From: an uncultured Gammaproteobacteria bacterium
GTDB taxonomy: Bacteria > Patescibacteriota > Microgenomatia > Levybacterales > UBA12049
Assembly (NCBI GenBank): GCA_964474445.1
Contig: CAYYSJ010000001.1
Coordinates: 270,530-334,529 of the forward strand
DNA: 64,000 nt
Direction: 5' to 3'
Positions within the stretch are counted from its first letter, which is position 1. Each line of letters begins with the position of its first letter. Positions 59,004 to 61,401 of this stretch are shown here, piece after piece. The notes under the pieces were generated by a model. That model did no database searches, was not told where the DNA came from, and saw nothing but the letters and a program-made list of their open reading frames with translations. A program made the position numbers and the translations under genes.

Positions 59004-60464
59004 TTACCGGAGTTTTTGCTGAAGATATGCTATAACATCTTCGATTTTTACTCGTTCTTGCTTGGCAGTGTCACGATCTCTAATAGTCACAGCGTTATCA
59101 TTGAGCGTTTCAAAATCAATCGTCACACAAAATGGTGTGCCAATTTCATCTTGTGCTAAGTATCTCTTCCCAATATTGCCCCTGTCATCCCATTGCACTT
59201 TGCCATCAATATTGTCTTGTACTAGCTCTAACACTTCACGAGCCTTTGCAACAAGCTCAGGCTTATTCGACAGGAGTGGGAAAACTGCAGCCTTTATCGG
59301 TGCCAAATGAGCAGGAAGTTTGAGCACTATCCTGTTCTCCTCCTCAGTGTATGCATCAGCAAGCACTGCAAGCATAAGCCTATTGATACCAACTGCGGGT
59401 TCAATAACATGAGGCAATATTTTTTCACCAGTTTGCGGATCGGTTACTTGCAAATCTTTTCTTGAATACTCCTGATGTTGCATCAGGTCATAATTTGTCC
59501 GGTAGGCAAGCCCCCACAATTCTTTGGTACCAAATGGAAATGCATACTCCAAATCCTCAGTTCGTTTACTGTAGAATGACCTTTCTTCATCAGTATGTGG
59601 TCTCCAGCGAAGTTTTTCTTCACGTATTCCTAATTTCTTTGTTGCAAAATCCCACATGTCTTTTTTCCACTCCTCAAAAAGACTCTCCCAATTCGTCTTT
59701 TCCGGATCAAAGAAATACTCTATCTCACCTTGCTCAAATTCAATTGTCCGAAAAATGGAATTTCCTGGAGTAATCTCATTTCTGAATGACTTACCAATTT
59801 GTGCAATACCAAATGGAAGTTTTACTCGTGTTGAGTTCATCACATTCTGAAAATTAATAAACATCCCTTGTGCTGTCTCACCTCGAAGATATCCTGATCC
59901 GCCTTCACCTTCGACAAGGCCTAACTGGACCGGAAAAAGCTGATTAAATTTTCTCACAGAAGTCCATTCATGCTTTTTACAATTTGGACATTCCACTCCA
60001 AAAAGCTTAATGAATTCATCGTATTGTTCAACAGTCCATCCTTCAACCTTTCCTGTTCCAAATGCTTTATCTAAATCTTCACGTGTTATTGTTTTCCCAT
60101 GATCAACAGTATTTCTTGCATCTTTATGCTGTTCAATCCAATCTTCTATCAAGTGATCGGCCCTGATACGAAGTTTGCAGTTTTTACAGTCAACCATTGC
60201 ATCAGCAAATGATGCGACATGACCTGAAGCTTCCCAAATTCTGTGATGAGAAATAATACTGGCATCAAGGCCAACCATGTCTGCTCGTTTAGTAACAAAT
60301 GTTTGCCACCACAAATTTTTTATGTTACGAAGTAAATCTGCACCCATTGGCCCATAATCATAGGTATTTGCTAACCCACCGTACAGATCTGAACCAGGAT
60401 AGAAAAACCCTCGCCGTTTTGCTAGCGCTACTAACTTATCCATTAAATTCTCTGTTTGTTGCAT
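59004..60464 (-). CDS. glyS: glycine--tRNA ligase (homodimeric alpha2 / eukaryote-archaeal type)
   Basis: FYPGSDLYGGLANTYDYGPMG N-terminal block, class II motifs 2 and 3, C-terminal anticodon-binding domain. Confidence 0.95.
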   Translation of the reverse strand: MQQTENLMDKLVALAKRRGFFYPGSDLYGGLANTYDYGPMGADLLRNIKNLWWQTFVTKRADMVGLDASIISHHRIWEASGHVASFADAMVDCKNCKLRIRADHLIEDWIEQHKDARNTVDHGKTITREDLDKAFGTGKVEGWTVEQYDEFIKLFGVECPNCKKHEWTSVRKFNQLFPVQLGLVEGEGGSGYLRGETAQGMFINFQNVMNSTRVKLPFGIAQIGKSFRNEITPGNSIFRTIEFEQGEIEYFFDPEKTNWESLFEEWKKDMWDFATKKLGIREEKLRWRPHTDEERSFYSKRTEDLEYAFPFGTKELWGLAYRTNYDLMQHQEYSRKDLQVTDPQTGEKILPHVIEPAVGINRLMLAVLADAYTEEENRIVLKLPAHLAPIKAAVFPLLSNKPELVAKAREVLELVQDNIDGKVQWDDRGNIGKRYLAQDEIGTPFCVTIDFETLNDNAVTIRDRDTAKQERVKIEDVIAYLQQKLR

Positions 60465-60612
60465 ATTATTATCCTATCAGAACTCAAACAGGTTTTCCAC
60501 AAAAAAACCCGTCCTTTTCAAGGGACGAGCTGCGTCGTGGTTCCACCCTTTTTACTTCTCTTTGCTGTAGCTCTAGGTTGCCAAGCCTTTCATCGCTACA
60601 AAATAACTATAT
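60465..60612 (-). promoter_or_regulatory. glycine T-box riboswitch leader (GGC specifier) with promoter
   Basis: Minus-strand RNA reads: stem I tgtagc...cttGGCaac...gctaca (GGC in the loop), the T-box sequence AGGGTGGAACCACG (consensus AGGGUGGNACCGCG), then terminator cgtccc-ttgaaaa-gggacg plus U7, then 45 nt to the glyS ATG. Promoter-like TTGACA-N18-TATAGT at about 60606-60635. Confidence 0.55.
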
Positions 60613-60675
60613 CATACCGAATAAACCTGTGTCAATTTTCTTGACAATCACCATGATTTTGTATATTAACAAGAT

Positions 60676-61401
60676 ATGTCCTCCTACGGTAAGGTATTAC
60701 CAACTTTTTACGATGCATTCATGGGGGATGAGAGTCGGATCATTCTCCCTTTAAAACAACTTCTTAAAAAGCACAATGTTAAACCAAAAAAAGTACTGGA
60801 AATAGGCTGCGGAACAGGCACTATTCTCGCATCTTTCCCTAAAACCACACGACTTTTCGGGCTGGACCTTTCCCAAGAAATGCTGAAAAGGGCAAAGAAA
60901 AAGCTTCCTCAGGCAACATTTTATCATGCAAACATGGCTGATTTTCACCTCTCGGTATCATGTGATCTGATTCTTTGCATGTTTGATGCAATCAATCACC
61001 TTAATTCCTGGAAAGAGTGGAAAAAAACATTTCAACATGTATCAGAGCATCTGACTCCAAAGGGGTACTTCATATTTGATATCAATTCTTTAGAAAGAAT
61101 GAAATATTTAACAAAATTAGGAGTGTATTTTGGTTACCCTATGGGAAACAATATTATGCTTACCCATAATACCTATACAAAGAAAAAAAATACTTTTGCT
61201 ATTTCTTTCAAAATGTTTCTCAAAGGAAAGGGAAATACTTACAACATAATTGATGAAGATGTTCTGGAAACAGGATTCCCCGTGGAAAAAATTAAAAAAG
61301 GGCTTCAAAAATATTTTGCCATTGAAGAACAATTTGATGTCGTTATGGAAAAATCTAATCTTAACTCAAAAAGAATCTTCTTTGTCTGTCGTAAGAAATA
61401 A
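60676..61401 (+). CDS. class I SAM-dependent methyltransferase
   Basis: Motif I VLEIGCGTGT, motif II/post-I LILCMFDAINHL. Confidence 0.75.
   Translation: MSSYGKVLPTFYDAFMGDESRIILPLKQLLKKHNVKPKKVLEIGCGTGTILASFPKTTRLFGLDLSQEMLKRAKKKLPQATFYHANMADFHLSVSCDLILCMFDAINHLNSWKEWKKTFQHVSEHLTPKGYFIFDINSLERMKYLTKLGVYFGYPMGNNIMLTHNTYTKKKNTFAISFKMFLKGKGNTYNIIDEDVLETGFPVEKIKKGLQKYFAIEEQFDVVMEKSNLNSKRIFFVCRKK

Follow-up and report, generated by a model that had tools for sequence, protein, structure and literature searches.

Upstream of glyS, the gene for glycyl-tRNA synthetase (GlyRS), the 64-kb stretch of DNA analyzed here (the window) contains a leader that combines the sequence elements of a T-box, two mutually exclusive folds, conservation and covariation, a link to GlyRS genes, and a loop triplet restricted to glycine codons. 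We consider it likely that this leader is a tRNA-Gly-responsive, T-box-type transcription attenuator of glyS; tRNA binding, sensing of tRNA charge, and regulated readthrough are inferred. More than 60 distinct sequences, from Patescibacteria (CPR) MAGs, Acidaminococcus, and many metagenomes, show this architecture ahead of GlyRS or glyQ. It probably constitutes a new architectural variant of a known riboswitch, present in Patescibacteria-labelled MAGs, Acidaminococcus, and metagenome contigs of unknown origin, with its function again inferred. An initial annotation, made from the DNA letters, had proposed a minimal glycine T-box before glyS and had remarked on the interest of T-box control in a CPR-like genome. 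The first interpretation is supported, its functional part by inference only; the second held, in that the GlyRS relatives carry Patescibacteria labels and several have the element, with the qualification that the architecture is not confined to CPR.

Layout of the glyS leader

The 211-bp leader region is read on the minus strand between two divergent ORFs, a methyltransferase gene (plus strand, 60676–61401) and glyS (minus strand, 59004–60464). Pfam tRNA-synt_2b, HGTP_anticodon, and GlyRS_ins_1 were matched on the GlyRS protein cluster, and the closest homologues of the window GlyRS come from MAGs labelled Patescibacteria, Levybacteria, or Saccharimonadales, which have the gene order DUF4012-RecO-GlyRS in common. 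The gene at 60676–61401 (plus strand) encodes a SAM-methyltransferase and sits between recO and glyS, divergent from glyS, as does its counterpart in one relative (L203, 431–1150); in most relatives recO is followed directly by glyS, and the leader occurs with and without this insertion. The parts of the locus, in the order of transcription and with the basis of each assignment in brackets, are as follows.

60606–60635, minus strand: sigma-70-type promoter, TTGACA, 18-nt spacer, TG-extended TATAGT (sequence)
60567–60599, minus strand: ultrashort stem I, 33 nt (sequence, covariation, register-independent pair counts)
60578–60585, minus strand: apical Specifier loop CUUGGCAA, 8 nt (GGC at 60582–60580, preceded by UU, then conserved A60579)
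60550–60566, minus strand: single-stranded, purine-rich linker AGCAAAGAGAAGUAAAA, 17 nt (alignments)
60521–60549, minus strand: T-box sequence AGGGUGGAACCACG (60549–60536) and antiterminator (Rfam alignment, folding energy)
60501–60531, minus strand: intrinsic terminator, 9-bp G+C-rich stem AGCUCGUCC/GGACGGGUU, 8-nt loop, U7 tract (sequence, folding)
60465–60500, minus strand: rest of the 5′ UTR, with Shine-Dalgarno (SD) AGGA at 60475–60472 and ATG at 60464 (sequence)
59004–60464, minus strand: putatively regulated gene, alpha2-type GlyRS, 486 aa (Pfam domains and homologues)

The promoter (−35 TTGACA at 60635–60630, −10 TATAGT at 60611–60606) matches 11 of 12 consensus positions. Shuffled sequences yield one comparable site per 500 nt, and the promoter is thus not significant by itself; equivalent promoters adjoin stem I in five relatives (L001, L002, L038, L020, and L114). 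Because promoter and stem I adjoin in the window and in these relatives, there is no space for a long stem I. In the absence of 5′-end data, we infer a transcription start at about G60599, the first base of stem I, which gives an attenuator of 99 nt up to the end of the U tract at 60501.

Stem I parses as GUAGC-GAU-GA-AAGG-CUUGGCAA-CCUA-GA-GCUAC, that is, a C-stem (GUAGC/GCUAC), a K-turn, one non-Watson-Crick A·A, three Watson-Crick pairs, and the apical loop. With the bulge GAU (60594–60592) and tandem G·A/A·G pairs (G60591·A60572 and A60590·G60573), the GA motif at the base of stem I takes the standard T-box form, GC-GAU-GA...GA-GC; the three-dimensional kink is inferred. Across the family, the bulge has 3 nt and ends in U in 54 of 57 sequences, GA is present in 55 of 57, position 3b·3n is non-Watson-Crick, and the flanking helices covary. 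By register-independent pair counts, the K-turn is the best-kept feature of stem I besides the loop.

The apical loop presents the glycine codon GGC followed by a purine, A (60582–60579), upstream of a GlyRS gene, as required of a Specifier. Of 13 sequences anchored on GlyRS, eight have the loop triplet GGC and five have GGA, with no other triplet, and the loop reads N-U/C-U-GG(C/A)-A-N with U(−1) and A(+1) invariant. Variation only between glycine codons, within fixed U and A flanks, is the behavior expected of a Specifier. UUGGCAA is the exact reverse complement of the anticodon loop UUGCCAA of Escherichia coli tRNA-Gly(GCC). No tRNA gene, cognate tRNA-Gly included, was found by ARAGORN in the 64-kb window, and no cognate tRNA-Gly was present in the fetched loci; the complementarity to tRNA thus rests on E. 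coli tRNA-Gly.

The linker runs in the order AGAAG (60559–60555, an RRRxG motif), U60554 at the place of the stem III hairpin, and AA (60553–60552), following the purine-string motif RRRxG...AA defined in PMC7583486. Only a single base, U60554, stands in for the hairpin, and the AGAAG and AA flanks keep their normal spacing to AGGG. Neither sequence nor alignments revealed a stem II, IIA/B, or stem III in the window linker, and a hidden helix sought in the A-rich linker of the subgroup of relatives without stem III was not found.

The antiterminator consists of helix A1 (AGGG/CCCU), the bulge UGGAACC (60545–60539), and helix A2 (ACGA/UCGU) closed by the loop CGCAGC. The bulge conforms to the 7-nt UGGNACC rule for the segment between A1 and A2 and is invariant in 13/13 relatives that were not chosen by DNA pattern. 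Its UGGA (60545–60542) matches U73: E. coli tRNA-Gly(GCC) ends in UCCA, and U73 in the organism's own tRNA is assumed from other bacteria. The terminal pair of A2 is A60538-U60525 in place of the G·U expected of T-boxes, with the U kept. This pair is G·U in 41 and A-U in 10 of 51 family sequences, and A-U in 10 and G·U in three of the 13 GlyRS-anchored sequences.

The terminator hairpin, AGCUCGUCC-CUUGAAAA-GGACGGGUU, occupies 60531–60506 and runs into the U7 tract at 60507–60501. The 3′ strands of A2 and A1 double as its 5′ arm, UCGUCCC being common to both folds, and the requirement of mutual exclusion is met, with computed energies of −5.6 kcal/mol for the antiterminator versus −12.6 kcal/mol for the terminator. 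This gap is the usual T-box asymmetry, and the computed energies imply that readthrough would need a stabilizing ligand. Since this hairpin sits within the 5′ UTR and is not preceded by the end of any gene, we interpret it as an attenuator. An equivalent terminator is present in most of 57 folded family sequences; it is weak in L104, L125, and L188, and in L080 and L112 it is cut by the contig end. A terminator-like site on the plus strand (60527–60543) was rejected, since it is nothing but helix A2 and the T-box read in reverse complement.

Downstream of the terminator, the window and four relatives (L001, L038, L053, and L098) carry UUGUGGAAA, whose GUGG in the window (60497–60500) comes right after U7. 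In the minimum-free-energy (MFE) fold of readthrough transcripts, UUGUGGAAA is able to pair with the CCACGA segment in the 5′ strand of the T-box/A2 (CCAC at 60537–60540). It also resembles degenerate GGUGGAACC; a remnant of a tandem copy and a lock formed after readthrough are both possible, and we cannot decide between them.

Most of what the initial annotation had claimed about this region held: the sigma70-like promoter on the minus strand, the short stem I with GGC in its loop (estimated at about 35 nt, measured here at 33 nt), the near-consensus T-box sequence followed by the glyS ATG, the U7 tract, and the lack of stem II, although it had not noticed that stem III is absent too. It had placed the overlap with the terminator in the T-box sequence, but the shared segment is the antiterminator 3′ strand (UCGUCCCU), and the terminator arms, given as cgtccc/gggacg, are corrected to CUCGUCC/GGACGGG. 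It was to be considered refuted if no significant Rfam T-box hit were obtained and no antiterminator could form. The antiterminator can form, so the latter condition failed; the former was met only formally, at the gathering threshold, and the family model R1 described below was decisive. The pairing that it suggested checking, between the tRNA NCCA end and UGGA, fits the UCCA end of E. coli tRNA-Gly(GCC) and is assumed for the organism's own tRNA.

Conservation and distribution of the element

No Rfam family reached its gathering threshold anywhere in the 64-kb window. In a permissive local scan of 351 nt, RF00230 matched the window element with 26.7 bits (E = 3e-4), leaving the gathering score of 93 unmet; the T-box and antiterminator part aligned near-perfectly, and 65 stem I model positions were deleted. 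Relatives score 29–49 bits on RF00230, and every tested member, Acidaminococcus included, falls below the gathering score. Other weak local Rfam matches (ToxI, E = 1.3; snoRNAs; U6atac; BsrG) were discarded as chance. We built a covariance model, R1, from 46 non-redundant relatives with the window excluded. R1 scored the window element at 68.8 bits (E = 1.4e-18), the only strong match in the 64 kb.

Relatives were collected along several routes. A GlyRS protein scan with one genome per species gave 77 loci, five of which have the same leader directly upstream of GlyRS (L001, L002, L020, L038, and L053); most other CPR GlyRS genes follow recO with a spacer too small for a leader. A metagenome scan with a degenerate pattern derived from six sequences (the window and these five loci) returned at least 120 loci. 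By a coarse filter, 80 of 120 loci were assigned to the architecture, and nearly all of them precede alpha2 GlyRS or glyQ; a few of the 80 are nevertheless accidental or questionable, namely pheS leaders, L175, and Latilactobacillus sakei. The pattern fixed UUGGCA, GAG, GGGUGG.ACC.CG, and GUCCC, which makes invariance at these positions uninformative in the pattern-collected subset. Ten close GlyRS homologues were sampled by protein identity alone, independently of the DNA pattern. Nine of these loci, all close CPR homologues, were informative, and five of the nine have the leader (L198, L202, L203, L204, and L207). Many close CPR relatives lack it entirely, as do L199, L201, L205, L206, and L003. 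Exact protein look-ups identified two hosts of the element, which there lies upstream of glyQ, as the cultured Acidaminococcus intestini and A. fermentans, and the architecture is therefore not CPR-specific.

Several candidates were set aside: L092, L107, and L109 (pheS), together with L175, are chance pattern matches; extra R1 matches in L150 and L176 represent ordinary T-boxes that belong to other genes; and L145, L167, and L184 (Latilactobacillus sakei glyQ) were not counted because their K-turn does not parse. Two of the counted loci have unexpected titles. L001 (CAZRBN010000066.1) is titled "uncultured Gammaproteobacteria," and its GlyRS is 85% identical to the CPR-type enzyme of the window; L020 (CAZNOF010000008.1) is titled "uncultured Pseudomonadales," with a GlyRS 56% identical to the window's. 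Both carry the same leader, and their bin labels appear unreliable.

The window belongs to a subgroup without stem III, together with its nearest relatives, L002, L038, L053, L098, L122, L139, L156, L198, and L202. Its members share the motif AGAAG-(U/C)-AA-NN-AGGGUGG, in which the hairpin has been reduced to one nucleotide and the flanks and spacing are kept. The A-U terminal pair of A2 is found in this same subgroup. Most non-CPR members keep a stem III hairpin between the RRRxG...AA flanks, as in L090 (GAGAG-hairpin-AA).

Covariation was measured in two alignments. Across 51 sequences, 92.8% of the cells in the proposed pairs are paired, versus 80.2% in shuffles (0/500 reach the observed value); sliding the 3′ partner by 1–3 columns lowers the figure to 43–51%, and the seven pairs that changed on both sides all lie within the two stem I helices. 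The 13-sequence set, which resulted from the sampling by protein identity and is free of any influence of the search pattern, gave 98.1% paired, again seven pairs changed on both sides, 0/500 shuffles, and 39–48% in the slid controls.

Relation to known T-box classes, proposed mechanism, and alternatives

A 2023 study from the Zhang laboratory (PMC10482949) recognizes four T-box classes: class I combines stem II with a long, platform-bearing stem I; class II (glyQS) has the same kind of stem I, platform included, but lacks stem II; class III has a short stem I with an apical Specifier and requires stem II; and class IV has an intermediate stem I plus stem II. In that account, tRNA binding is strengthened by the platform, by the S-turn of stem II, or by the two together. 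According to PMC7583486, transcriptional T-boxes generally need the platform, disruption of which abolishes readthrough in vivo, a truncated stem I requires stem II, and stem III is indispensable. The same review describes a discriminator architecture that is essentially identical across known T-boxes, with the A2 G·U pair as the primary steric sensor, and attributes the absence of stem II from glycine T-boxes to how strong the GGC/GCC duplex is.

The family described here lacks the distal platform, the S-turn Specifier loop, stem II, and the IIA/B pseudoknot in every member. In the window, where a platform would require an AG bulge and a distal loop with interdigitated T-loops, stem I is closed by a loop of 8 nt only three pairs beyond the K-turn. 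The family thus joins a class III-like stem I to a class II-like absence of stem II and a terminator output, and so has neither augmenting element; the window subgroup departs, in addition, from the "invariant" discriminator.

Class II glyQS leaders (Bacillus subtilis and Geobacillus kaustophilus; RF00230) are alike in many respects. They are specific for glycine, their GGC Specifier being followed by a purine; they have no stem II or IIA/B, a single-stranded linker, and a K-turn at the base of stem I; and their UGGA bulge matches U73, and they control a glycyl-tRNA synthetase gene through competing antiterminator and terminator folds. Unlike them, the window element has its Specifier in an apical loop rather than in an internal loop with an S-turn, has no distal stem I and hence no interdigitated T-loop platform stacking on the tRNA elbow, has no stem III hairpin, and ends A2 in A-U. 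A glyQS attenuator is roughly 180–200 nt long, compared with about 99 nt in the window. Class III ileS leaders (Nocardia farcinica and Mycobacterium tuberculosis) also have a short, platform-less stem I with an apical Specifier above a K-turn (PMC10482949), but they require a stem II S-turn and IIA/B pseudoknot that clamp the anticodon stem-loop, are isoleucine-specific, and act on translation through an SD sequestrator. The window element, by contrast, is without stem II, is glycine-specific, and has an intrinsic terminator with U7 and no SD sequestrator; with no helix in its 17-nt linker and a terminator as output, it does not qualify for class III. For the recognition step only, anticodon loop-loop complexes of two tRNAs whose anticodons are complementary, and kissing hairpins, offer an analogy, in which a U-turn and pairing beyond the triplet remain conjectural.

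We propose the following mechanism, in which tRNA binding and discrimination by charge are inferred. Transcription would start at about G60599, and the nascent 33-nt stem I would fold as a K-turn plus short helix whose apical loop offers GGC, with U on its 5′ and A on its 3′ side, to tRNA-Gly with its GCC anticodon. The discriminator would be brought toward the tRNA acceptor end by the K-turn together with the 17-nt purine-rich linker. With uncharged tRNA, UCCA-3′ would pair with UGGA, stabilizing the weak antiterminator and permitting readthrough and more GlyRS; with tRNA charged or absent, the stronger terminator would form and transcription would stop at the U7 tract. Affinity might come from an apical loop that resembles an anticodon loop, such that two pre-stacked loops kiss via three G-C pairs, from U(−1)·A37 and A(+1)·U33, which may lengthen the loop pairing, and from the retained purine string, which may still dock on the NCCA/bulge helix. 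We favor the idea of the anticodon-like loop, which draws on the recurrence of the loop core UUGGCA in the anticodon-loop region of tRNA-Ala(GGC) genes and on the complementarity of UUGGCAA to the tRNA-Gly(GCC) loop.

A bolder reading, for which we see as much reason to hesitate as to accept, takes this locus and its more than 60 relatives as a fifth T-box class, transcriptional and glycine-specific. On that reading, recognition would use only an anticodon-loop-like kissing hairpin above a K-turn and the NCCA/bulge helix, with no platform or stem II, and the CPR subgroup would also make do with a one-nucleotide stem III and an A-U sensor pair. Such an element would be a natural tRNA-charge sensor of ~99 nt, and no smaller one is known to us. 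Its existence would mean that nature can do without each of three parts, the platform, stem II, and the stem III helix, and the element might approximate an ancestral T-box or be an end point of genome-reduction streamlining.

One objection to the T-box interpretation is that, against the rules in PMC7583486, the platform, stem II, stem III, and the A2 G·U pair are all lacking or altered. The leader might be a decayed T-box relic that senses no tRNA, its hairpin and U tract acting as a constitutive, leaky attenuator or being merely tolerated. In favor of this are the missing platform, the missing stem II and stem III hairpin, and the change of A2 G·U to A-U, features that reviews call essential, the low Rfam score, and the many close CPR relatives without a leader (L199, L201, L205, L206, and L003). 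Against it, UGGAACC, the purine string, the K-turn, and the codon loop are kept across lineages whose GlyRS proteins are only about 55–85% identical, both stem I helices show compensatory changes, and the triplet swaps only between glycine codons. We regard the relic reading as very unlikely because a relic would not keep covariation and codon-restricted variation. The likeness to a T-box could also be accidental, the hairpin being an ordinary one, or an ordinary terminator, between divergent genes; this view could appeal to the Rfam score below gathering and to promoter-like sites being as common in shuffles. It is all but excluded by the R1 E-value of 1.4e-18, by position and orientation before GlyRS conserved in dozens of contigs, and by a terminator that lies within the 5′ UTR between promoter and ATG with no upstream gene ending there.

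Less remote, though still unlikely, is a functional T-box that depends on an accessory factor, whether a K-turn-binding protein of the L7Ae family, GlyRS itself, or a slow or paused polymerase. The K-turn is the best conserved part of stem I apart from the loop, bacterial L7Ae homologues bind T-box K-turns, and in vitro a protein fraction was required for the thrS T-box (PMC7583486). However, no candidate factor was identified in the window, and canonical glyQS works with RNA alone (PMC7583486). Autoregulation by GlyRS is further disfavored in that the same leader precedes two unrelated GlyRS types, alpha2 and the glyQ of alpha2beta2.

If the leader is the glycine T-box that we favor, it bears on the current view that tRNA capture needs, besides the Specifier, at least one of two supports, a platform stacking on the elbow and a stem II clamp (PMC7583486, PMC10482949): a family without platform and stem II, and in CPR also without stem III, would challenge those rules. 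It would offer structural biology a far smaller tRNA-riboswitch complex and synthetic biology a tRNA-charge sensor of roughly 100 nt, would mean that annotation at Rfam thresholds overlooks such leaders even in the cultured gut bacterium Acidaminococcus, and would be, within the literature searched, the first evidence that Patescibacteria (CPR) use T-box control. That search, which was incomplete and did not extend to older comparative-genomics papers, found no description of such leaders or of any T-box in CPR; an earlier description of these leaders may nevertheless exist.

Other T-box arrangements in the collected loci

Tandem short-stem-I glycine T-boxes precede a single GlyRS gene in L122 (896–980 and 1044–1153), L139 (774–857 and 912–1025), L203 (1228–1357 and 1398–1522), and L207 (1559–1674 and 1713–1837). 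One copy has GGC and the other GGA in the tandems of L122 and L203, and these pairs might jointly sense the tRNA-Gly(GCC) and tRNA-Gly(UCC) isoacceptors. The CPR short-stem-I glycine T-box of L204 (1807–1929) has a 44-nt insertion in the A2 loop, reminiscent of the lineage-specific "stem Sa" insertion in the glyS T-boxes of staphylococci. The glyQ leaders of Latilactobacillus sakei have UUGGCA and then UUUCGGAG, with UAA for UGA and no parsable short K-turn. RF00230 aligns 166 nt of them with 48.7 bits, below gathering, and their stem I is perhaps of intermediate length.

The metagenome scan also returned complete, canonical leucine T-box leaders, in L083 (7279–7570, minus strand), L088 (6833–7130, minus strand), and about 38 more loci (e.g., L089, L093, L099, L106, L116, L119, and L121). 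They have the Specifier CUC and a UGGU bulge, score 110–113 bits on RF00230, above the gathering score, and lie mostly upstream of leuS, with a few (e.g., L088, L130, and L151) before an AMP-binding ligase-like ORF. Genuine tRNA-Ala(GGC) genes contain the core of the window's Specifier loop, UUGGCA, within their anticodon-loop region (CUUGGCAUG), and were caught by the pattern scan for that reason; the leucine T-box loci entered it only because the anticodon loop CUUGGCAUGGAAGAG fits the pattern. To our knowledge, a tRNA nested within a T-box leader has not been described. In each of these leucine leaders, the stem III loop holds an 82-nt insertion that is an intact tRNA-Ala(GGC) gene, and the nested tRNA scores 67.7 bits on RF00005 and has G3·U70 and a CCA end.
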